Positions 2,231 through 51,815 of a DNA stretch of 64,000 nt are shown here, one piece after another. Below the pieces are notes generated by a model. That model was not told where the DNA came from and did no database searches. It was given only the letters and a program-made list of their open reading frames with translations. Where the stretch lies: the NCBI RefSeq assembly GCF_963921235.1, contig NC_086097.1, positions 119,228,001-119,292,000 of the forward strand, given 5' to 3'. Positions within the stretch are counted from its first letter, which is position 1; each line of letters starts with the position of its first letter. A program made the position numbers and the translations under genes. Source of the stretch: Mobula hypostoma. Its lineage: Eukaryota.

Positions 2231-3286
2231 CACTATTTGGCCAAATCAACCACCTTAGTGCCATTTCTTCAGTTCCTTAACCATTACATGCAGACCAGTC
2301 CAGTCCCTCCAACTCATTCTCTTGGTATTCCACTACACTGTTTCTTCAAATGCTAATTTATTGTTAGTTTCTGCCTGCCCGATCAAAACTTTGTGATAAA
2401 ATGTTCTGCAGCAACTTCTTTCCTTTGGTAGCAGATTGAGTTAAAGTAATTTCTACTGATCTTCTATTGCAAAATCAATCCTCCTGAATTGCTAATGAAA
2501 TCTGGCCAACATGCACACCATCTGCAAGCTCCCTAGCCATCCAGGTTTAATGTGCAAAAAAAAGACTATAGACTTTTATACGCATAGTGCCTTAAGGATA
2601 ACTGAGAATGGAAAAGAAATATCATGTACAATTCCTGCAGATTCTGGAGGAAATGATGTTTCATTTAGAAACTGCTGAAGGATTGGGTGGCATTTTCCAC
2701 AGCAAGGAATAATAATGGCTTTTTCAGCCTACACATACTTGGACCTGCCCAGGTCTGAGCAAGTCTTTAAGGAGATTCTGAGAATCTTTACAGAGAGGAT
2801 TCTCGGTTCTAGGTGCCTAATTTCCTGAAGGCAGTTTTTTTTTGCATATCATCATCATAGAAGAGGAGGAAGGACAGGAAAAGACAGAAGCTTAAGACAA
2901 CACAGCAAAAATTTCAGGCCATTGTCTTTCAGCATTTTATTTTGCTCAAAAATTCTTCCAAATTTAACATGAATTTAACATGACTTTCTTCAGTGTGGCT
3001 ATGAACACTATTATTCAGACTAGAAAGCAGAATATTTCAAAGCAAATTGCAATATCTGATATAATATATCAAAACAAACCAAATACTCACTTATTAAAAG
3101 TAAAAGTTCAATGACATCGATTGCATTACTTCCCTTTCAGAAAGTAATAAAGGCAGACAAATAATCAAATGTCTTCATGTGTTAAGTTATACCATCAGGT
3201 AATTAATATATACAGTATATATATTTAAACTTTTGACTTACAGAGATATCTATACACAGTTATATATTTAAATAAATTACTTTGAA

Positions 3287-3655
3287 GCTACACACATAAA
3301 AATTGCTGGTGAATGCAGCAGTCCAGGCAGCATCTCTAGGAAGAGGTACAGTCGACGTTTCGGGCCGAGACCCTTCATCAGGACTAACGGAAAGAAGAGA
3401 CAGTAAGAGATTTGAAAGTGGGAGGGGGAGGGGGAGATCCGAAATGATAGGAGAAGACAGGAGGGGGAAGGGATGGTTCTAAGAGCTGGAAAGTTGATTG
3501 GCAAAAGGAATATGAGAGGATCATGGGACGGATGGGAGGCCGAGGGAGAAAGAAAGCAGGAGTGGGGAAGCCCAGAGGATGGGCAAGGAGTATAGTGGGA
3601 GGGACAAAGGAGAGGGAGAAAAAATATATAATAATAAAAGATAAATAAATAACGG
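3287..3655 (-). mobile_element. Penelope-like terminal repeat copy (young)
   Basis: Closely similar to 43128-43551 in reverse orientation. Confidence 0.8.
3350..3385 (-). ncRNA. Minimal type I hammerhead ribozyme motif
   Basis: Minus strand AGUC-CUGAUGA-A-GGGUCUCGGCCC-GAAA-CG-UC^GACU. Core is intact, helix I is AGUC/GACU, helix II is GGGU-CUCG-GCCC, and helix III is the palindrome ACGU. Confidence 0.75.
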
Positions 3656-4312: not shown

Positions 4313-4858
4313 AACACACACAAAACACTGCAGGAACTTAGCAGGTCAGGCAGCAATTATGGAATGGAATAAAGAGTCGACGTTTCAGATCGAGACCCTT
4401 CACATGAGCAGGAAAGGTATGGGGAAGAAACTAGAATAAAAAAGAGGGGGAGGGGAAGGAGGACAAGATAGAAAGTGAGAGGTGAATCCATGTGAAAGGG
4501 AAGGTTTGTGAGTAGGGGGAGGCAGTTGAAGGGGAAGCTGAGTGGTGATAGCTGGAAAAGATAAAAGGCTGAAGTGGAAGGAATCTGATCGGAGAGGGAA
4601 GTGGACTGTAGTAGAAAGCGAAGGAGGAGAGGTGCCAGAAGGAGGTGATGGTCCAATGAGGAGAAGGGAAGGGGTAAGAGAGGAGTCAGAAAAGGGAATC
4701 AAAAAAGAGAGAAGTGGGAGGGGAGAGAAATTACCAGATGTTAGAGAAATTGAATTTCATGGTTGGAGGCTACCCAGATGGAAAATAAGGTGTTGCTCCT
4801 CCTCCAACCTGAGTGTGGCATCATCATTGCAGCAGAGGAGATCATGGATTGACATGTG
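4313..4858 (-). mobile_element. Penelope-like remnant
   Basis: Reverse complement contains caacaccttattttccatctgggtagcctccaacc and a degenerate terminal module at 4375-4410. Confidence 0.7.
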
Positions 4859-7800
4859 ATGATAAACCGAATGTCCTATTTAAATGTTCTTCACTTTCTT
4901 ATCCTCAACCTCAGGTTTGCATTAGCTTTTATCATTAGCTATTTTAAGTGTGTAGATCTCCTTATGGTCCTGACTTTACAATACTGTGTCCATGCGGTGA
5001 CCATTTCTTGAATCCATGTTGCCTCTTTTTTTCACCCCTCTAGCACGAGTTGTGGTTCCCAGCAGCCTCTCTGCTCTTTCGTCCATCCATTGCTTTTCAT
5101 AGCCTTGATTGATCTTTACTTCATGTTTTCATATCCACCTTACAAGTTCATTGCTCTTTAGAAATGTATATTGGTGACTTTGCTTGTGGCTTCATTCTTC
5201 TTCTGTGACTTATCTTCTGCAAATATTCTCTATTATATTTCTTTTTCAGTAAAGTCACTGAATTTCTTCCCAATGCTAGTCCATTAAGCCTATTAAGCTT
5301 TCGGAATTTCATCTTTCAATGACTTTACCACAATTGTTATAACAAGCCAAACAGGATCAGGTTTTATGAGCTCTGGCAGAATTAAATTAATGTTTTTATG
5401 GTTATTAGTTGCTCTTGGAACAAATTCCACGTTTAAAATTAGCACTTAAATGTACCCATTCATGGTAATGCAGGAAAATGTTGTAAGTATTCAGGTGCCA
5501 TTATTAATAATTTTCAATTGCATCAGAAGTTTGTGCTTGAGTAATCCTGATTGAATAACACTGTAATAATATGTTATTGGCAACATTTATTGCACAGTGA
5601 ATCAATTACATTACTTAAGTGGAAAACTCAGAAGACAAAATAGCTGAAAGAAAAAACAGCTTCACATCTGGATGTGATCTCTGTGCTCAGCAGAATAAAA
5701 GGAAGCGACAGAGGAGACTCAGAAAAGGAAGGGAGGTGGAGACACTGGATAAAGAATGAACAAAAATAAACTGCCTTCAGAATCCGACAATTTGTTTGCC
5801 CCATTGGTTTGCTCTACATTTTCCAGGTTTTAGTTCCTATAGTCACTGGGCTAGATCACACACACGCTAGAGGACTTGAACTAGATTTTTTTTTCCTGTT
5901 TATTCTTTGAATTTTTGCATATTCTGATCAGATGCTAGAGGAACATTGAACACGGAAATCCAATAAAATTGCCTATTGATTTGAAACCCAAATGCAATGT
6001 TTTGTGCTCCAAAGCACTTGAAATAATCACTGGTAGGGCATATGAATTTAGATATGAATGATGCATTATTGTCTGGAAATCTCTTGGCAAAATGAAAGGA
6101 AAAGTACTGGCTGATAAGTGCTATTAGACAGACATGTAGGTGACAATCAGCCGACATGGATAACATACATGGGCAGATTTTGTAGGTTCAAGAGATTAGG
6201 CAACATGCATGGAATGGAATAAACGGTTAATGTTTTGGGCTGAGACCATTCATCAGGATTTTGTAGATTTTTAATTTCACTTAAAAGAGGTGTTTCTGCT
6301 GAATCAGAAAACTTATAGTACAGAGATCTCATTCAAAGTTTCAAAGGTTCATGTTATTATCAAGGTATATATGCAGAATACAACTCTGAAAATTTTCTTC
6401 TCCAGATAGCTATAGAATACAGAAACCGATATAAGTAGTTGAAAAGAAAGACATCAACCCACACTCCTCCCCGCATAAAACATACAAACATAGAAAACCT
6501 ACAGCACAATACAGGCCCTTCGGCCAAGAAAGCTGTGCCGAACATGTCCCTACCTTAGAACTACCTAGGGTTTACCCATAGCCCTCTATTTTTCTAATCT
6601 CCATGTAGCCATCTAGCAGTCTCTTTAAAGACCCATTCGTTTCTGCCTCCACCACCACCGCCAGCAGCCCTTTCCATGCACTCACCACTCTCTGAGTAAA
6701 AAACTTATCCCTGACATCTCCTCTGTACCTACTTCCAAGCACCTTAAAACTATTCCCACTCATGCTAGCTATTTCAGCCCTGGGGAAAAGCCTCTGACTA
6801 TCCACATGATCAATGCCTCTCATTATCTTGTACACCTCTGTCAGGTCACTTCTCATCCTCCGTCGCTCCAAGGAGAAAAGGCCGAGTTCACTCAACCTAT
6901 TCTCATAATGCATGTTCCCTAATCCAGGCAACATGCTTGTATCTCCTGTGCACCTTTTCTGTGGTCTCCACGTCCTTCCTGGAGTCAGGTGACCAGAACT
7001 GAGCACAGTACTCCAAGTGGGGTCTGACCAGGATCCTATATAGCTTCAACATTACCTCTCGGCTCTTAAACCCAATCCCAAGACTGATGAAGGTCAACGC
7101 ACCATATGTCTTCTTAACCACAGAGTCAACCTGCGTAGCAGCTTTGAGTGTCCTATGGACTCAGACCCTAAGATCCCTCTGATCCTCCACATTGCCAAGA
7201 GTCTTACCATTAATGCTATATTTGCCATCATATTTGACCTACCAAAATGAACCACCTCACACTTATTTGGGTTGAACTCCATCCGCCTCTGGACAGCCCA
7301 ATTTTGCATCCTATCAATATCCCGTTGTAACCTCTGACAGCCCTCCACACTATCCACAACACCCCCAACCTTTGTGTCATCAGCAAATTTACTAACCCAT
7401 CCCTCCACTTCCTCATCCAGGTGATTTATAAAAATTACAAAGAGTAGGGGTCCCAGAACAGATCCTTGAGGCACACCACTGGTCACCGGCCTCCATGCAG
7501 AATATGACCCGTCTACAAACACTCTTTGCCTTCTGTGGGCAAGCTAGTTCTGGATCCAGAAAGCAATGTCCCCTTGGATCCCATGCCTCCTTACTTTCTC
7601 AGTAACTCTTGCATGGGGTACCTTATCAAATCCCTTGCTAAAATCCATACATGCTACATCTACTATTCTATTTTCATCAATGTGTTTAGTCACATCCTCA
7701 AAAAATTCAATCAGGCTCATAAGGCATGACCTGCCTTTCACAAAGCCATGCTGACTATTCCTAATCATATTATGCCTCTCCAAATGTTCATAAATCCTGT

Positions 7801-8188
7801 CTTTCAGGATCTTCTCCATCAACTTATCAACCACTGAAGTAAGACTCACTGGTCTATAATTTCTTGGGCTATCCCTACTCCCTTTCTTGTATAAGGGAAC
7901 AACATCTGCAACCCTCTAATCCTCCGGAACCTCTCTCATCCTCATTGATAATGCAAAGATCATTGCCAGAGGCTCAGTAGTCTCGTCTCTCACTTCCCAC
8001 AGTAGCCTGGGGTACATCTCCTCTGATCCCAGTGACTTATTCAACTTGATGCTTTCCAAAAGCTCCAGCACATCCTCTTCCTTAATATCTACATGTTCAA
8101 GCTTTCCAGTCCACTGCAAGTCACCCCTGCAATTGCCAAGATCCTTTTCCATAGTGAATACTGAAGCAAATAATTCATTAAGTACCAC

Positions 8189-8638
8189 ACATCAAAGTTG
8201 CTGGTGAATGCAGCAGGCCAGGCAGCATCTCTAGGAAGAGGTGCAGTCGACGTTTCAGGCCGAGACCCTTCGTCAGGACTAACTGAAGGAAGAGTGAGTA
8301 AGAGATTGGGGTGACTTGCAGTGGACTGGAAAGCTTGAGCATGTAGATATTAAGGAAGAGGATGTGCTGGAGCTTTTTGAAGGCATCAAGTTGAATAAGT
8401 CACCGGGATCAGAGGAGATGTACCCTAGGCTACCGTGGGAAGCAAGAGAGGAGACTGCTGTGCCTTTGGCAATGATCTTTGCATTATCAATGAGGATGGG
8501 AAAGGTTCCGGAGGATTAGAAGATTGCAGATGTTGTCTGTACTCTTCCTAGAGATGCTGCCTGGCCTGCTGCGTTCACCAGCAACTTTGATGTGTGTTGC
8601 TTGAATTTCCAGCATCTGCAGAATTCCTGTTGTTTGCG
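8189..8638. mobile_element. Penelope-like insertion: inverted terminal repeat, captured DNA, then forward terminal repeat, with a 13-bp TSD
   Basis: CATTAAGTACCAC at 8176-8188 and 8639-8651. Reverse terminal repeat 8189-8307, CR1 sequence 8308-8537, forward terminal repeat 8538-8637. Confidence 0.85.
8245..8280 (-). ncRNA. Minimal hammerhead ribozyme motif
   Basis: Minus strand AGUC-CUGACGA-A-GGGUCUCGGCCU-GAAA-CG-UC^GACU. Confidence 0.72.
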
Positions 8639-10484
8639 CATTAAGTACCACTGCTATTTCCTCCGGTTCCATACACACTTTTCCACTGTCTTACTTAATT
8701 GGTCCTATTCTCTCATGCCTTATCCTCTTGCTCTTCATATACTTGTAGAATGCCTCAGGGTTTTCCTTAATCCAACCCACCAAGGCCTTCTCATGGCCCC
8801 TTCTGGCTCTCCTAATTTCATTCTTAAGTTCCTTCCTGCTAACCTTATAATCATCTAGATTCCTATCATTACCTAGATTTGCAACAGCCTTTGTACACCA
8901 TGGATCTTCTTCCCTACCAACCTTTCCATGTCTCATTGGAACATACCTATGAGGAACCCCATGCAAATATCCCATGAACATTTGCCACATTTCTTCCGTA
9001 CGTTTCCCTGAGAACATCTGTTTTCAATTTATGCTTTAAGTTCCTGCCTGATTAGCCTCATATTTCCACTTACTCTAATTAAACGTTTCCCTGACTTGTC
9101 TGTTCCTGTCCCTTTCCAATGCTATGGTAATGGAGATAGAATTGTGATCACTATCTCCAAAATGCTCTCCCACTGAGAGACCTGAAACCTGACCAGGCTC
9201 ATTTCCCAATACCAGATCAAGTACAGCCTCTCCTCTTGTAGGCTTATCTACATATTGTCTCCAGAATCTTTCCTGAACACACCTAACAAACTCCACCCCA
9301 TCTAAACCCCTCACTCTAGGGAGATGCCATGCAGTATTTGGGGAAATTAAAATCTCCCACCACAACGACCCTGTTATTATTACTCCTTTCCGGAATCTGA
9401 CTCCCTATCTGTTCCTCGTTGTCCCTATTACAATTAGGTAGTCTATAAAATACACTCAGTAGAGTTATTGACCCCTTCCTATTCCTAACTTCCACCCACA
9501 GAGACTCTGTAGACAACTCCTCCATGACTTCCTCCTTTTCTGCAGCCATGACACTATCTCTGATCAAGAGTGCCACGCCCCCACCTCTTTTGCCTCCTTC
9601 CCTGTCCTTTCTGAAACATCTAAAGCCTGGCACTTGAAGTAGCCATTCCTGCCCCTGCACCATCCAAGTCTCTGTAATGGGCACAACATCATAACTCCAA
9701 GTGCTGATCCAGGCTCTAAGCTTATCCTCTTTATTCATAATACTCCTCACATTAAAATAGACACATCTCAAACCATCGGTCTGAGCACGTCCCTTCTCTA
9801 TCACCTGCCTATCCTCCCTTTTGCACTGTCTCCAAGCTTTCTCTATTTGTAAGCCAACCTCCCTTTCCTCCGTCACTTCAGTTCGGTTCCCACCCCACAG
9901 CAATTCTAGATTAAACTTTCCCCAATAGCCTTAGCAGACCTTACCACCAGGATATTGGTCCCCCTTGGATTCAAGTGTAACCTGTTCTTTTTGTACAAGT
10001 CACACCTGCCCCAGAAAAGGTCCCAATGATCCAGAAATCTGAATCCCTGCCCCCTGCTCCAATCCCTCAGCCATGCTCCTCTGACGCCCGCTCTGTAAAC
10101 CTGTCTTCCTTTTAAACTCTTCCTGCTGTTTTCAATAGCCGACCTCCATGTGCTTGCGCAGTCTTGCCCTGTTCAAACCTCTGAAGAAATGACCATCACC
10201 TTTTAAACTCTTCCCACTTTTCTCATTGGCCAACCTCCATGCACTTGCGCAGTCGTGCCCCGTTCAAACCGCTGAAGAAAAAGAAAAAAAAAACAAAATC
10301 TCACAAACCCTGAACATCCCCAACCCCTCCCTTGCACACAAACTAACAGATCACCTAATCTCCCATCTCCCAGCCTGCCAATCCACAACAAGAAAGAATG
10401 GGCGAAAAGATGAAACAAACATAGAACTGAAAGAGGCCAATATGAACTACAGTCCAGTCCATAAATCTCAGAATTTTGATAACA

Positions 10485-10656
10485 TCTCTGAGAGCATTGG
10501 GACCCAGCGGCCCCTCCGAGAGCAGTGACTGGAACCAACAGCCCCTCCGAGGGCAGTGACCCCTCCAGTGTCAGTGACTTGAACAAGTGGCCTCTCTGAG
10601 GATACTGACATGAACCAGCAGCCTCTCTGAGGAAAGCAACATGAACCAGTTGCCTC
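10485..10656. repeat. Degenerate 31-bp minisatellite, about 6 units
   Basis: Units include ccctccgagagcagtgactggaaccaacagc and ctctctgaggatactgacatgaaccagcagc. Confidence 0.7.
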
Positions 10657-11384
10657 TTCGTGAACCGTTCACTCTCCTCCGCATTTGCCTCGATGCTTCA
10701 ATCTCCTTTGATGCTTTAATCAGAGGGAAATGTAGTCGATCATGAACCTTCGTCTCATCTCTGAACTTCTCCTCATGGTAGCTCATGCTCCCATTTCTCT
10801 CTTGGAGTTTTCTCAGAGAAAGCAGGGTGCAAGCTGACTCAATCAAATGACAAGCTATAAGCCACACGCTCCAACAGTTTCAAAAACAAAATTATATAAA
10901 AAAGGATAAGGAGACGTAGAAAAACTGAAATGATTGACTATCTGGAAGATGTCGCCTGAAGAATCTTTGTTACCTGGCGCCATCTTGACTGAAATTTCTC
11001 TTGATCCATCATGGTTCTTTGAAAATATGAGTCCAATTAGATCCAAAGCAGCAGAACTTTTTTTCTGTCATCACATCCTTTTCAAAATCCTCATCAAGAA
11101 TATTACCACTTGCTCTTCGCTTCACCACAGCTGCTGGTGCTGAGGAGGTGAATTTGGACCTTAGCCATAAATCTCTTCTGCCAAGGTTGTGGCTACTATA
11201 GAGTGACCTGAAGAAATGGAAATGATAAAAAATAAATGAAGGTTTTAATTAAAGTTCATTGATCTGAAACAAAGATACTCTTTCCCTCTTTACAGGTGGT
11301 GTTCGCCATGGATAATTCCAATATTTCCTGACTGTCTTTCACAGCTTCAACATAGATTATACTGTGCTTTTGTAGACAAAATCT

Positions 11385-13262
11385 TCTCCACAAAATTCAA
11401 GTCCAGAGATCAAGAATACTCTAAGAAGTGCAGGTATAACCTCTGGAATGCCACCTCATGGGCGAAGTGGAAATTCCAGACTGAACTGGAATCAGCGAGG
11501 GATGCTTTACAGCTGTAGCAGGGATGGATGACATAACCTCCTACAAAGATAAATCCTGCGACATAGGGGACAGTAGACCTTAATTTCCACATGAATTCAA
11601 TGCCTTTTATGCTTGCTTTGACTACCAGAACAGGGAGAAACTATTGAGCACCCCCATGTTTCCCTATGATCCTTTGGTCTCAGTATCTTAAGATGACATG
11701 CGGGCTGCCTTCAAGATAGTGAATCCAAGGAAAGCATCTGATCTGGACTGAGTATCTGGCCAAGGACTAAAGACCCGTGCTGACCAACTGGCTGGTGTGT
11801 TCATGGATATTTTCAAACTTTCGTTCTGGCAGTGTCTGGTGCCCACCTGCTTCAAGCAGGCTTCAAACATACCGGTGAGCAAGAAGAGTGTGGTAACCTG
11901 TCTAAATGACTATCGCCCAGTGGCAGTTACATTCACAGTGATGAAGTGTTTTGAGAGGCTGATGTTGAAACGTATTAGCTCCTGTCTGAATGGTGACTTA
12001 GATTTGTTCCAATTTGCCTACTGAAGCAACAGGTCTATAGCAGATGCTATCTCATACCTCACTGGCTCTTCACACCACCCTGGAATATCTGGACATCAAA
12101 GGTGCACATGTCAGGATGCTCTTTATCGATTACAGCTCAACATTTAACACCATCATCCCCTCATAACTAATCAGTGTACTCTAAGACCTAGGCCTCAATA
12201 CCCTCTTATGCAATTGGATCCTGGAGTTTTGTAGACCCCAGTGAGTCCAGATTGGCAAAATCCTCTCCTCCACAATGTCCATCAGCACAGGAGCACCGCA
12301 GCGATGTGTACTTAACCCCCTGCTTTACTCACTTTGCCCCTATCACTGTGTTGCTAAATACAGCTGCAACACCATATACAAGTTCGCTGACGACACCACT
12401 GTATTGGGCTGTATCAAAATGGGTGATGAATCAGCATGCAGGAGGGAGATTGAAAACTTGGCTGGGTGTTATTAACAACAAGCTCTCACTCAATATCAGC
12501 AAGACCAAGGAAATCATTGTAGACTTCAGGAGAAGGAAATCAGAGGTCCAGGAACCAGTAATCATCAAAGGATCAGAGGTGGAGAGGGTCAGTAAATTTA
12601 AATTCCTGGGTGTCACTATCTCAGAGGACCTGTCCTGGACACATCATATAAGTATTATTGTGAAGAAGGTACGACAGCACCTCTACTTGCTCAGGAGTCT
12701 GTGGAGGTTTGGCATGTCATTGAATACCTTGGTAAACTTCTATATATATGTGATGGAAAGTGCGTTGACTGGCTGCATGATGCCTTGGTATGGGATCACC
12801 AATGCCTTTGAGCAGAAGATCCAACAAAAGGTAGTGGGTTCCATCTAATACATCATGGGTAAAACCCTCCCAACTACTGAGCAGATCTACATGAAACATT
12901 ACAGTAGGAAAGCAGCATCCATCATCAAAGATCCTACCACATATGCTCTTTTCTCATTGCTGCCATCAGGTAGAAGGTACAGGCACCTCAGGACTCATAC
13001 CATCTGGTTCAAGAATAATTACTACTCCTCAACCACCAGGCTCTTGAATAAAAGGGGATAGCTACACTTACTTAAGGACTCCGTTATATTGTTATTTCAT
13101 GCTCAATATATACTGCTATCTATTTATATCTGCATTTGCACAGTTTGCTTAACAGTTCCTGATGTTTACAGTTTTGCTAAATTTGGCCCACAGAAAAAGA
13201 ACCTCACAGTTGTATGTTGTGACATATACGTACTCTGTTAATAAATTTTACTTTGAACTTTT
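11385..13262 (+). mobile_element. Rex1/Babar-like LINE, 5'-truncated and frameshifted
   Basis: [63 protein letters not shown]. Tail aataaattttactttgaacttt. Confidence 0.85.
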
Positions 13263-18339: not shown

Positions 18340-19630
18340 CAAAGTTGTGTTCCCTGGCCTTGAACACTTAATGATCAAATGCTGTCTGTTCTATTTACCT
18401 TGGGAGTTCTCCTCCATAATCCTAACCACAGTTCATGTATTCCCAACGACTGACAATAATCATGTGCTTGAGATACTGCATATTGCCATCTCCAAACAAG
18501 AAACAGTCCACTCCGATGCACTTCAAATCATAGTCAGAAACTTCAACCAGGGTACTCTGAAGAAAACCCTGCCCAATTACCATCAGCATCTAACCTGTAG
18601 CACCAAAGGTCCCAAGATACTAGACCACTGTTATACCAAGATAAGGAAATCTGATCACTTGGCTGTCCTTCTCCTATCTGCATTGCATGCAGGCAGAGGC
18701 TCAAGAGCAAAATTCCAGATAACAAAGCAGTGGTTGTGGGAGCAGAGGAGCAGCTATGGGATTGCTTCGAGCCAGTGGACTGGGTCGTGTTCAAGAACAT
18801 ATGTGAATCTGATTGAATATACTATGGTTGCCATGAACTTTATAAAAACAGCCATAGGCAAGTGTGTCCCCACAAAATCATTCAGTGTCTTCTCCAACCA
18901 GAAGCCTTGGATGAACCATGAGATCCATAATCTGCTGAGGGCCAGATCAGAGGCACTCAAGTCTGGTTTAATGCCAAGAAGTTACCAGCAGTCCAGGTAT
19001 GATCTCTGGAAAGCTATTTTATGGGTGAAGTGGCAATTCTGCACTAAATTTGAATCAACGAAGGATGCTCGACAATTATGGCAGGGCTTGAATGCTATCA
19101 CCTGCTATAAAGTTAAGCCTTCTGTGCATGATTTAACCAATGTAACATGGAGGAACCATCAGGTGCACCACAAGGCTGTGTGCTTAGCCCCCTGCTCTAC
19201 TTGCTTCATACCAGTGACTGTGTGGCTAAGCACAGCTGCAATGCTATATTGAAGTTTGCTGACGACACCACTGTTGTGTGCCAAATCAAAGGTAGGATGA
19301 ATCAGCATACAGAAGGAAGATTGAAAATTCGGCTGAGCGTTTCCGTGACAACCTCTCACTCAATGTCAGCAGGACCAAGGAACTGATTATAGACTCCCGG
19401 AGAGAGAAACCAGAGGTCCATGAGCCAGTCCTCATCAGAGGATCGGAGGTGGATAGGGTGTTACTATTTTGGAGGACCTCTTCTGGATCCAGCATGTAAG
19501 TGCAATTACAAAAAAGTTTAGCAGCTCCACTTTGTTAGGAGTCTGCAGAGATGAGTCATGATATCTAAAACTTTGACAAATTTCTATAGATGTGTAGTGG
19601 AGAGTGTATTGTCTATCTGCCTCACTGGCA
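18340..19630 (+). mobile_element. Rex1/Babar-like LINE, internally deleted
   Basis: Endonuclease C-half (LDHCYT..KSDHLAV) and NQKPWM, then a jump to GAPQGCVLSPLL..KFADDTT. Confidence 0.8.
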
Positions 19631-28320: not shown

Positions 28321-29252
28321 CTGAGTTGTCAGCTCCACAATAGCTTTTTTCGCTGTTGGGGGGTCACAACAAAAATTAATGACCATTGTGAGGAGGACTT
28401 CATTTAATAAATCAAAAGGAAAAAAATCAAGATGATGAGGCAGAATGGAAATTAATATGGGTTAAGGAGAGTTAGAAAAATTACAGAAATCAGCGGGAAA
28501 GCAATAAAGAGAAAATCAAGGAGACTGAAAATAGCTTGGATATGAAACTGGCAGAGGAAGGTTTGACTTATATGTATGTAAATGCGCAAAGAAATTTGAA
28601 TAATATTGGTGAAGTGAAACGGCAAAATATGTTTTGAATCTAAAGTCAGGTTCAGAGCTTTAGGAGTTAGCTGAAGAAAGTCTAAAATCAAGCTGGTAGC
28701 CAAGGCTGCGGGAGAAGGTTATTCAACAGAAATCAATCAAGTACTTAGGTGGAATTTTAAATTATATTCACAATTATAAATGATGAATTATAAGATTATA
28801 GGGAATATAATTCAGCTATGGGGAAAGGTGGAATAGGTAGGCAATGAATGGAGCTTTGATAAAGGTATAGGTGGGGTAAAGACAAGCCGGCTTTTCCATT
28901 GAGTTTAGGTATGAACATAACTGGACGTCATGGGTTAAGGGTGAAAGAAGAAATGTTTAACGGGATCATGAAGGGGAAGTGATTTCAAGAACATGAAGGG
29001 GAAGTGATTTCAAGAAGCAGGTGCTTTCACCAATCTGGTCCATGTTGAATTATTATTCAGCCTAGTCCCATTAACCTGCACTTGAACCATAGCCTCCACA
29101 TCTTTTCCATCCATCCACTTATTAAAATTTCTCTTAAATGTTGAAATCAAACCTGCACCCTACACTTCTGCTGGCAAATCATTCCTCAATCTTACCACAT
29201 TCTGAGTGAAGAAATTCCCCCTCATGATCCCCTTAAACATTTCTTCTTTCAT
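28321..29252. repeat. Local duplicate (copy A) of 36043-36915 with an inverted distal part
   Basis: Long exact shared runs such as gactgaaaatagcttggatatgaaactggcagaggaaggtttgacttatatgtatgtaaatgc. Confidence 0.8.
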
Positions 29253-30111
29253 CCTAGGACAAGCCCTCTTCTCAATGCTACCTTCGGGAAGGAAGTACAG
29301 AAGCCTGAAGGCACACACTCTACCATTCAGGAACAGCTTCTTCCCACTTGCCATCAGATGTCTGAATGGACATGGAACCCATGAACACTACCTCACTACG
29401 TTTTTTCTTGCAGGGAATGTGGCATGCAATTGGTGGATGGATCTCCAACCAAGTTGTAGTTGCCTCAGCTAATTACAGCCCCATGGTCCTTCTGTTCAGA
29501 CAAGGTTGATGTGGTACGTTTGTTGCTGTGTTTCAATTATGGATGTCAGTCCCACAGGAGTTACCTTTCCTCCAATATAATTTCTTAATTGGATTTTGTT
29601 CAGGATCTTTGAAATGCTGTTAAACTCATTTTGTGGAATGACTTGAAACAGCTGAGCCAGCGTCCAATTCCATTTAAATTAATTTACCATTCACTTCTGA
29701 TGTAAACCATTTGCTTGTCTATTGATAGTTTTCACATTGTAAATCTCAAGGCTGTCACCCTGATCATTATTAGAATATTTATCAATAGTGTGTAGATTAG
29801 TGCTCTTATTGAAACTGGAATTTGACTTTTTACCTTGTTCTCTTCTCTGTGCAATCCATCTATTTTTGCCTGCCCATCATGCTCTTTATATGTATCCTAT
29901 TTTGTTGCATTTTCTGCAGGGTTGCCTTCAAACCAGCATTTGTCTAGTATATATGATCCCCTGCCACAACAGTAACACAATTTGTTCAGCCAGGCTGGTT
30001 TCTGTTCAGCTGCTGCAATTTTTCTCACACTCACTTTAATTCGTGATGACATCTCAATTGCACCGCTGTCTGCGGTTTCATTGAAACAGTGATTTCAACT
30101 GCTGTTTTAAA

Positions 30112-42890: not shown

Positions 42891-43127
42891 CTTAAGGACC
42901 CGTACATGAGTGAGATAGTTAAGTTGTGTCACAACAGCAACCTTACACTCAACGCAGTAAGGCCAACAAATTGATTATGGATATCAGGAACTTGGGAGAA
43001 CACTCATCAGTCCTCAATGAGGGGACAGCGATGGAAAGACTGAACAGTTTCAAGTTCCAGGGTGTTAACCTCTCAGAGGATCTGTCCTGGCCCCAACATA
43101 TTGCTGCAATAACGAAGAAGGCACGTC

Positions 43128-43551
43128 CCCCTCGTACCCCAGCTGTTACTCATTTTTATGCACACATTCTTTCTCTCACTCTCCTTTTTCTCCCTCTGTC
43201 CCTCTGAATATACATCTCTTGCCCATCCTCTGGGTCACCCCCGCCCCCCTTGTCTTTCTTCCCGGACCTCCTGTCCCATGATCCTCTCGTATCCCCTTTT
43301 GCCTATCACCTGTCCAGCTCTCGGCTCTATCTCTCCCCCTCCTGTCTTCTCCTATCATTTTGCATCTCCCCCTCCCCCTCCAGCTTTCAAATCCCTTACT
43401 CACTCTTCCTTCAGTTAGTCCTGACGAAGGGTCTCGGCCTGAAACGTCGACTGCGCCTCTTCCTATAGATGCTGCTTGGCCTGCTGCGTTCACCAGCAAC
43501 TTTGATGTATGTTGCTTGAATTTCCAGCATCTGCAGAATTCCTGTTGTTCC
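43128..43551 (+). mobile_element. Young Penelope-like terminal repeat insertion
   Basis: Same family as 3287-3655 and 8189-8638. Possible CGTC TSD at 43124-43127 and 43552-43555. Confidence 0.8.
43417..43452 (+). ncRNA. Minimal hammerhead ribozyme motif
   Basis: AGUC-CUGACGA-A-GGGUCUCGGCCU-GAAA-CG-UC^GACU. Confidence 0.72.
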
Positions 43552-46992: not shown

Positions 46993-48020
46993 AGAATCAG
47001 AATCAGGTTTATTATCACCAGCATGTGTCATGAAATTTGTTAAGTTAGCAGCAGCAGTTCAATGCAATACATAATACAGAAGAAAAAATAATAATAATAC
47101 ATAAATCAATCAAACAATTACAGTATATGTCTATTGAATAGATTAAAATCATGAAGAAACAGAAATAGTATTTATTTGAAAAGTGAGTTAGTGTTCACAG
47201 GTTGAATGTCCATTTAGGAATTGGATGACAGAGGGGAGGAAGGTGATCCTGAATCACTGAGTGTGTGCCTTCAGGCTTCTGTACCTCCTACCTGATGGTA
47301 ACAGTGAGAAAAGTGCATGCCCTGGGTGCTGGCATCTGTTAGTCTTGTGAGACCATGGATCTGCACCTGGAAAGCCTTCACTCTCCAGGGCTCAGGCCTG
47401 GGCAAGGTTGCATGGAAGACCAGTAGTTGCCCATGCTGCAAGTCTCCCCTCTCCATGACACCAATGTTGTCCAAGGGAAGGGCATTAGACCCATACAGCT
47501 TGGCACCAGTGCCGTCGCAGAGCAATGTGTGGTTAAGTGCCTTGCTCAAGGACACATGTTCTCTTGGCTGGTGCTCGAACTCATGACCTTCAGGTCGCTA
47601 GTCCAATGCCTTAACCATTTGGCCATGCACCCACCTCCTGGGTGCTGGAGGTCCTTAATAATGTACGCTGCCTTTCTGAGATATTGCTCCTTGAAGATGT
47701 CTTGGGTGCTTTGTAGGCTAGTACCCAAGATGGAGCCAACTAAATTTACAATCATCTGCAGCTTCTTTCAGTCCTGTGCAGTAGCCCCCACCTCCTCATA
47801 CCGAACATTGATGTAGCCTGTCAGAAAGCTCTCCACGGTACATCCAGAGAAGTTTCTGGGTGTTTTTGTTGACATACCAAATCTGTTCAAATTCCTAATG
47901 AAGTATAGTCGCTGTCTTGCCTTCTTTATAACTGCATTGATATGTTGAGACCAGGTTAGGTCTTCAGAGATCTTGACAACCAGGAACTCAAAACTGCTCA
48001 ATCTCTCCACTTCTGATCCC
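46993..48020 (-). mobile_element. Rex1-like LINE 3' region with a SINE insertion
   Basis: SEDLTWSQHI..KKARQRLYFIR. (TTCTGA)n tail. Confidence 0.8.
47333..47636 (-). mobile_element. Complete tRNA-derived SINE with 12-bp TSD
   Basis: A-box tggccaaatggtt, B-box gagttcgagc, core gtgtccttgagcaaggcacttaacc. CCTGGGTGCTGG at 47321-47332 and 47637-47648. Confidence 0.85.
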
Positions 48021-49837: not shown

Positions 49838-49839
49838 CC

Positions 49840-51815
49840 TCAACCACCAGTGCTGGCAGTGCATTCCGCACACCACCACCCTCTGTGTAAAAAACTTACC
49901 TCTGACATCCCCAATGTACCTACTTCTAAGCACCTTTAAACTATGCCCCCTCATGTTAGCCATTTCAGCCCTGGAAAAAAGCCTCTGACTATCCACATGA
50001 TCAACACCTTTCATCATCCTATACACCTCTATCAGGTCACCTCTCAACCTCTGTTGCTCCAAGGAGAAAAGGCTGAGTTCACTCAACCTATTCTCATAAG
50101 GCATGCTCCCCATTCCAGGCAACATCCTTGTAAATCTCTTCTGTGCTGTCTCTATAGTATCCACATCCTTCCTGTAGTGAGGTGACGAGAACTGAACACA
50201 GTACTCCAAGTGGGGTCTAACTAAGGTCTTATATAACTTTAACATTACCTCATGGCTCTTGAACTCAATCCCATGGCTGATGAAGTCCACCACACCATAT
50301 GCCTTCTTAACAACCTATGCAGCAGCTTTGAGTGTCCTATGGACATAGACCCCAAGATCTCGCTGATCCTCCACACTGTCAAGAGTCTTACCATTAATAT
50401 TATATTCTGTCTTCAAATTTGACCTGGCGAAATTAACCACTTCAGACTTATCTGGGTTGAACTCCATCTGCCACTTTTCAGCCCAGTTCTCAATCCTATT
50501 GATGTCCCACTGTAACTTCTGAAAACCCTCCAGACTAAGCATAACACCCCCAACTTCTGTGTCATCAGTAAACTTATTAACCCACCATTCTACTTCCTCA
50601 TCGAGGTCATTTATAAAAATCACAAAGAGGAAGGGTCCCGGAACAGAGCCCTGCAGAATACCATTGGTCACTGTTCTCCACGCGGAATACGAACCACTTA
50701 CAACCACCCTTTGCCTTCTGTGGGCAAGCCACTTCTGGATCCACAAAGCAAGGTCTCTTTGGATCCCATGCCTCATTACTTTCTGAATGATCCTTGCATG
50801 GGGAACCTTATCAAATGCCTTACTGAAATCCGTATACACTACATCTACTGCACTACCTTCATCAATGCGTTTTGTTATCTCCTCAAAGAATTCAATTAAG
50901 CACAACCTGCCTTTGACAAAGCCATGCTGACTATTCCTAATCATATTATGCCTCTGCAAATGTTCATAAATCCTGCATCTCAGGATCTTCTCCAACAACT
51001 TGCCCACCACTGAGGTCAGACTCACTAGTCTATAATTCCCTGGGTTATCTCTACTCCCTTTCTTGAACAAGGGAACCACATTTCCAACCTTCCAATCCTC
51101 TGATACTTCTCCCGTCCCTATGGATTATACAAAGATTATTGCCGGAGGCTCAGCAATCTCCTCCCTTACTTCCCACAGAAGCCTGGGATATATCTCATTT
51201 GGTTCCAATGACTTATCTAACTTAATACCTTTGAACAGCTCCAGCACATCTTCTTTCTTAATGTCTGTACACTCAAGCATTTCAGTCCACTGTAAGTCAT
51301 CCCCACAATTGCCAAGGTTCTTTTCACTGGTGAATACTGAAGCAATGTATTCAGTAGGTACCTCCGCTACTTCCTCCGGCTCCATGCACACGTTTCCACT
51401 ATTGCACCTGATTGGTCCTATTTTCACACGGCTCATCCTCTTGCTCTTCCTATACTTGTAGAATGCCTTGGGATTTTCCTTAATCCTGCTCATCAAAGCC
51501 TTCTCATGGCCCCTTCCAGCTCTCCTAATTTCATTCTTGAGCTCCTTCCTGGCACCCTTGTAATTTTCTAGAGATCTAACAGTATCCAGTTTCTTGAACC
51601 TTTCATAACCGTTTTTTTTCCTTCTTAACTAGATTTTCTACATCCTTTGTACACCATGGTTCTTTTACTCTACCATCCTTTCCCTGCCTCAATGGAACAT
51701 ACCTATGCAGAACGTCATGCAAATATTCCCTGAACAGTTGTCACATTTCTGCTGTGCATTTCCCTGAGAAAATCTGCTCCCAATTTGTTCCCAAGTTCCT
51801 CCTTCGCCCTACCAC
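49840..51815 (-). mobile_element. CR1 ORF2 fragment, same family as 6481-10276
   Basis: NYRLVSLTSVVGK, DFSKAFDKVPH, KFTDDT, LVRPHLEYC. Confidence 0.92.

Follow-up and report, generated by a model that had tools for sequence, protein, structure and literature searches.

How does a short retroelement insertion come to carry, between its own two terminal pieces, a copy of the DNA beside which it landed? The question is raised by a locus in the window of 64,000 nucleotides that was analysed here (all positions refer to this whole stretch). The locus is a short Penelope-type insertion enclosing a flipped 229-nt copy of the DNA that adjoins its own landing site. Read on the + strand, it begins with the left copy of the target-site duplication (TSD, 8176-8188), the last three nucleotides of which, CAC, match the pLTR at the start of the reverse arm. 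Then follows this reverse, tail-less pLTR arm of 119 nt (8189-8307, minus strand), which crosses a hammerhead motif and reaches 59 nt upstream of the cut site. Between the arms lies the filler (8308-8536, CR1 coding sense on +). The forward pLTR arm (8537-8638, +) has a tail of 42-45 nt, lacks the ribozyme core and starts 2 nt beyond the predicted cut, on its 3' side; the right TSD copy (8639-8651, +) closes the unit. The source of the filler is a segment of the surrounding CR1 (7899-8127, minus strand). The two inverted arms, source and filler, are 229 nt long, ungapped and 93% reverse-complementary with 16 mismatches, about the number that the earlier note had counted by hand. An uncopied CR1 stretch of 48 nt (8128-8175, minus strand) lies between source and TSD and belongs to the 180-nt gap, or loop, between the inverted arms; the source thus ends 48 nt left of the TSD and 61 nt left of the reverse arm. 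No other inverted self-match longer than 100 nt with a gap below 1 kb is present in the window.

The limits of the unit are set by its target site. The two TSD copies are identical at 13 of 13 positions, and when the insert is cut out in silico, the interrupted CR1 becomes colinear with the window copy at 51.0-51.5 kb. The same empty-site join (8175 to 8639) is present in family contigs of 4/4 related genomes, as befits the target-site duplication of an EN+ Penelope-like insertion. The identical TSD and the restored empty site bear out the layout proposed earlier, a 13-bp TSD around a reverse pLTR, a CR1 piece and a forward pLTR; only its ends had to be moved, the CR1 piece to 8536, the forward pLTR to 8537-8638 and the source to 48 nt from the TSD. 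No contig bridges the inner junctions (8307/8308 and 8536/8537) among the 32 pieces listed of about 282,000 (281,981 others) from four non-conspecific relatives, which weighs neither for nor against the structure, as other species and a shortened listing are involved. Both TSD copies carry an A (8187 and 8650) at a position where 99% of the family depth has T. This A is an earlier change particular to the host CR1 copy, and it produces the CAC overlap where the reverse arm starts.

The host of the insertion is a CR1 LINE on the minus strand. Its 3' part (6496-8175), comprising a decayed RT region and the 3' end, is 81% identical to the window copy at 49838-51362; its 5' part (8652-10414) holds the EN region and the 5' UTR, an ORF at 9316-9930 and a 91-bp tandem duplication in the 5' UTR (10108-10280), and aligns colinearly with the 51-kb copy when read over the empty site. 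Two 12-nt TSD copies (6484-6495 and 10415-10426, both +) are paired around it. Translated, 7919-8188 matches RT (PF00078) proteins named Mobula (78%) and Hypanus (74%), two of three matches from 76 candidates; candidates of near length gave no match, and the three came from longer ones. By these names the DNA is probably that of a ray. A search of metagenome contigs with the CR1 pattern gave 0 matches. The best frame of the 3' part holds 24 stops; the CR1 is dead, and it is a single insertion between TSD copies of its own. Around it lies a putative outer ORF-less element on the minus strand, with its 3' part at 6345-6495, which ends in a short TTTGAA-type tail on that strand and may be a retroelement 3' end, and its putative 5' part at 10427-10990, with degenerate 30-31-bp internal repeats (10500-10657). 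The three-level nest described earlier is thus secured for CR1 by the 12-nt TSD; for the outermost level, named a non-autonomous element, neither a second copy in the 64-kb window nor a TSD was found.

Both arms of the insertion belong to the same pLTR family as 43390-43549 and 3282-3412. The reverse arm is 95.8% identical to 43390-43508 and 91.6% to 3294-3412, and the forward arm (8537-8638) is 96.8% identical to 43457-43549. Both outer ends of the insert coincide with the usual ends of this family, and family contigs end, as loose ends, at 8636-8638, where the forward arm ends. The tail extends 42-45 nt beyond the position of the reverse-arm start, which slightly exceeds the published 30-40 nt, and only the forward arm has it; the reverse arm has no tail and starts at an AC-rich site with the 3-nt CAC overlap with the TSD. 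An inverted, 5'-truncated pLTR copy thus stands at the 5' side, here parted from the forward arm by the filler. The insertion holds no ORF and ends in the pLTR tail without poly(A).

The reverse arm also carries a predicted minimal hammerhead motif (8245-8280, minus strand), composed of a 4-bp helix I, a CUGACGA core, a short helix II, GAAA and a palindromic CG that replaces helix III. Motif scan and fold place its core at 8249-8276 and the predicted cut between 8249 and 8248. Core, helix I and palindromic 15.2-16.2 agree with the minimal hammerheads described in the consulted part of PMC4209133. In the reverse arm, G-U or A-U stands in place of the usual G10.1-C11.1 pair; the copy at 3294-3412 has C. 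The Rfam hammerhead models gave 0 matches at gathering in the window, and at E<=10 the region 7800-8800 gave three weak matches, none to a hammerhead. Of the intact hammerhead claimed earlier, the minimal motif stands as a prediction and the covariance match is missing.

Over their 58-nt overlap the pLTR arms show three differences, 8217/8565 and 8243/8540 among them, and one of the three is a common family variant (about 54-65% in relatives X1 and X5). It is possible that two different RNAs served as templates for the two arms. The pLTR letters at 8231, 8240, 8243 and 8589 differ in 82-95% of the depth in relative X9, and those at 8231, 8240 and 8589 in less than 30% in X1 and X5. Since letter shares differ in this way, the pLTR subfamily of the insert expanded in only some of the four relatives, whereas all four share the letters of the CR1 family.

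Where does the filler come from? Contigs of four related organisms (X1, X5, X9 and X15; 4/24 runs), none conspecific, were aligned to 8128-8900 at 85% likeness. The share of window words in these relatives is 0.36-0.51, with 0.51 as the best; family copies and not orthologues account for these shares, since the pieces listed carry 13-23 other letters. The family shares given here are depth-weighted contig figures. The filler differs from the family contigs at 17 positions (among the 40 of 76 rows listed), and at nine of these the flank has the letter of the filler (8355, 8394, 8409, 8414, 8441, 8447, 8455, 8485 and 8493); at the other eight the flank carries the family letter. At 8409, 8414, 8455 and 8485, 91-99% of the family depth has another letter, and 8441 and 8493, at about 50%, are weak markers. 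Four more letters common to filler and flank come from the loose-end consensus at 8130 (8311, 8318, 8322 and 8329; 8322 in 3/4 relatives). This makes 13 non-family letters in total, spread evenly along the arm; the rare ones still occur in 1-9% of the family depth. The product of same-letter shares over the nine sites is 4e-10 to 1e-7 across the four relatives if the sites are independent, an assumption that linkage violates, so that these values are too small.

A premature stop tells a similar story. Both arms read PED* (TAG), two window frames (60411 and 62775) read PEDW and the 51-kb copy reads SEDW; W also stands at the TAG position in 3/3 database proteins, which are selected for lacking stops. 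The contig rows listed include none for the TAG. The stop, which the earlier note had set against PEDW elsewhere, is thus upheld by three other CR1 frames of the window and three proteins, and it is probably a further letter common to filler and flank, unlike the family. The only other window CR1 copy that matches the filler is 77% identical to it. Because 13 non-family letters are common to both, the filler derives from the host CR1 copy or a close duplicate, and the private mutations predicted for filler and 7899-8127 are in this sense present. Only such a close duplicate could replace the flank as source.

We suggest that TSD, opposed pLTR arms and inverted copy of the insertion's own flank probably arose together, when a new DNA end turned back onto the flank during a single integration. 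The anatomy of the insert and the local origin of its filler are read directly from the alignments; from them we infer the following steps, with their polarity and polymerase. In the first step, endonuclease nicks would be staggered by 13 nt. Both 3' ends would then be extended on pLTR RNA: the bottom-strand end from the tail end of the RNA, from 8638 leftwards for about 102 nt, and the top-strand end from 8189 rightwards for 119 nt, across the uncut hammerhead. The latter would start at a second, AC-rich site by means of the CAC microhomology. Next, the top-strand end would fold back over the loop of 180 nt and reach its own strand near 8127, which demands only about 48 nt of resection and strand displacement, and 229 nt would be copied leftwards. 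Finally, the folded-back end and the bottom-strand cDNA would be joined, microhomology playing little or no part, and the hairpin would be opened by fill-in. The polymerase may be a host repair enzyme or the RT of the element. The polarity is our reading as well, and the opposite one, with bottom-strand cDNA carried onto flank DNA or a minus-strand transcript, would give an identical product.

Several features fit this scheme. PAc has two RT start sites, and both strands are cleaved and extended (PMC11167929, in the part consulted); one-sided tails are described for Penelope-like insertions in the cited part of PMC8557442. The one-sided tail and the outer ends at the family ends match the two start sites and the two-strand extension of PAc. 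The snap-back geometry fits a top-strand arm that folds back, and the junctions are compatible with either polarity. At 8307/8308 there is no perfect overlap, a 3-nt ATT match being obtained only with a 3-nt deletion, and at 8536/8537 the match is at best imperfect; with no perfect microhomology at either of them, the polarity is not fixed. The earlier proposal that synthesis switched template onto adjacent DNA is accordingly sustained by the 13 letters as far as a local inverted copy is concerned; the junctions do not reveal which strand made the switch or which kind of template, DNA or RNA, it used.

The alternative that survives best is an RNA-templated jump, which we consider unlikely. Here the RT, while making the forward arm, would run to the 5' end of a pLTR RNA cut by the ribozyme and move to a nascent minus-strand transcript at about 7899; it would copy 229 nt, and the product would be joined to the reverse arm. 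The filler runs in the CR1-sense direction, the one expected from a sense RNA template; nearby pre-mRNA has once been co-inserted with L1 (PMC10191854, cited part); and the forward arm begins no more than 2 nt from the predicted GUC cut, so the observation of the earlier note that it starts within a few nucleotides of the cleavage site is exact. The role for the cut that was implied there is not supported. Among nine pLTR pieces of the window, a single one has its start near the cut, the others reaching from 19 to at least 256 nt upstream, where alignment ends of old copies may be eroded. None of the eight arm-to-arm joins listed in relatives (1029 others) has its forward arm starting there; the starts are 8542, 8566, 8572, 8577, 8579, 8591, 8603 and 8615. 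The family depth is steady across the cut site, without a drop (a weak measure), and the reverse arm was itself copied through uncut ribozyme. Uncleaved RNA is the main substrate of PAc in vitro (PMC11167929, cited part), and single minimal hammerhead motifs did not cleave in the assays of the consulted part of PMC4209133. Further, the jump presupposes transcription of the putative template locus. We regard a link between the forward-arm start and the cut as unproven.

Fold-back in a single event has to be reconciled with the divergence of the inverted arms. Their differences are mostly transitions (13/16), and one CpG has decayed independently in each arm. By contig comparison, eight differences are specific to the filler and two more probably so (8521 and 8523; 2/3 proteins); the remaining six, absent among the rows listed, are assigned to the flank, three of them with backing from proteins. 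The ratio of filler to flank changes is thus about 10:6 (p 0.45), and changes lie on both strands and both branches. Hypermutation by a deaminase or ADAR, as a source of the 7% divergence, was rejected on account of this spread over strands and branches. Filler and flank together have 16 changes in 458 branch-nucleotides (2 x 229 nt). The pLTR pieces and TSDs have 1-3 private changes in 247 nt (relative to two window copies), with six CpGs intact. Fisher tests of the two rates give p 0.009, 0.04 and 0.09 for 1, 2 and 3 changes. This age tension between inverted arms diverged by 7% and nearly pristine pLTR pieces counts against one event, yet it is borderline, because the pLTR arms compared directly (3/58 differences) do not differ from 7% (p 0.77). 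Chance may lie behind it, as may partial homogenisation or a duplicate donor that has escaped notice. The differences thin out towards the loop, with 4 in the first 118 nt and 12 in the last 111 nt (p 0.04, post hoc), which is possibly partial homogenisation near the hairpin loop. The mismatches are not biased to keep pairs, with six G-U wobbles on the + strand and seven on the other.

The same tension lends some weight to a donor elsewhere, namely a duplicate of the host CR1 (segmental, or a small private subfamily) that arrived through 5' transduction with a short pLTR or through gene conversion. Such a donor would account for a 7% divergence to which both branches contribute (about 10 and 6 changes), next to pLTR pieces that have hardly decayed, and for the persistence of the rare filler-flank letters in a few percent of the family depth. 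It requires an unseen duplicate, as well as an inverted landing 48 nt from the homologous segment, and homology-guided invasion from either break end would be expected to give direct orientation. The host CR1, moreover, is a dead single insertion. We regard this course as very unlikely. An equally faint prospect, in our opinion, is a history in two steps, in which a head-to-head pLTR pair was inserted, later broken at its centre and patched with a copy of the flank. Head-to-head pLTR palindromes are fragile, and relatives do have directly joined reverse and forward arms (the eight joins listed). The filler should then be younger than the pLTR pieces, yet the inverted arms are the more diverged ones. 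An assembly or sequencing fold-back artefact, for which one might cite the lack of an inner-junction bridge among the contigs listed from four relatives, has next to no probability, since the unit sits inside a perfect TSD and its 16 differences have a decay-like spectrum, the 7% divergence of the arms excluding a simple fold-back.

How does fold-back at this insertion compare with known systems? Canonical EN+ Penelope-like insertions have in common with it the head-to-head pLTR arms, the one-sided tail, the TSD and the minimal hammerhead (PMC8557442, PMC3846280 and PMC11167929, parts of each); the locus differs from these descriptions by 229 nt of adjacent flank between the arms and by its lack of an ORF. 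In Adineta vaga, the consulted part of PMC3846280 describes unrelated host DNA between Penelope pLTRs inside one TSD. The presence of non-element DNA in this place is thus shared, but that cargo is read as moved in trans, whereas here it is an inverted copy of the target flank 48 nt away.

The closest parallels come from L1. Foldback inverted duplications 52-220 bp long, upstream of the target, were described in three insertions, plus one with internal inversion (PMC10191854), templated insertions below 250 bp in 22 (10.1101/2024.08.27.596794), and nearby templated DNA in three (PMC11702581), each according to a part of the source. A short copy (<250 bp) from beside the target and a discrete TSD are common to these cases and ours, and the copy can occur alongside priming at both ends (n=1 for the combination, PMC10191854, cited part). 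The filler, too, is a short inverted copy adjoining the target that carries that locus's own letters. The differences, as far as these partial sources go, are another retroelement class, no poly(A), germline origin, old age and a copy placed between two primed arms; between source and TSD lie 48 nt here, whereas the L1 sources typically end within 15 bp (10.1101/2024.08.27.596794). Neither an L1 body nor a poly(A) tail at an L1 endonuclease site was found in the insertion. In its workings it resembles the L1 foldback and templated insertions, yet it is no L1 event. The R2 protein is also capable of snap-back on nearby target DNA (PMC11371274, cited part), so that a cDNA 3' end primes there before the final join, as we propose here; the R2 cases were engineered, with single-end TPRT at rDNA, and mostly snapped back on the cDNA itself. 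The literature searched (partial coverage, main texts only) yielded no description of a Penelope insertion with an inverted copy of its local flank, and 10.64898/2026.07.22.740005 contributed nothing to the comparison. This single fossil locus is a Penelope variant of a known repair outcome.

No function is evident for the locus, which lies inside a dead CR1, and any transcript across it would form a 229-bp hairpin. Its importance lies in the integration cycle, as the steps after Penelope priming still await validation according to the cited part of PMC11167929. A flank-copied filler between the arms fits a model in which both cut ends are extended separately and joined last, as in twin-primed L1, and a genome-wide count of such fillers would make this model testable. 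One may go further and imagine that Penelope integration primed from two ends routinely makes long inverted repeats out of host sequence next to the target, through fold-back by the element's RT or through its jump onto a local transcript when it reaches the end of a ribozyme-cut RNA; we find this generalisation rather unlikely. If it is true, high-copy Penelope families keep supplying the genomes of cartilaginous fish with hairpins of host sequence (dsRNA, fragile sites), and the order of steps in the Penelope cycle is preserved in the fillers.

The window contains other features of related kind. A 68-nt old, reverse pLTR-like scrap lies inside a 13-nt TSD (12/13 identical) at 6176-6269. Two old, long copies of pLTR type (648-1181 and 4328-4857) stand in opposite orientation 3.1 kb apart, are 69% alike and have a younger pLTR copy (3282-3623) between them. 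At 28938-29255, 41-nt inverted repeats (93%), 236 nt apart, overlap a perfect 25-nt tandem duplication (28967-29016). A young pLTR copy with hammerhead and tail occupies 43185-43549; a TSD was sought around this copy and none was found. It follows a fragment of another repeat (43052-43125), which matches 12600-12673, 47918-47988 and 19455-19516.
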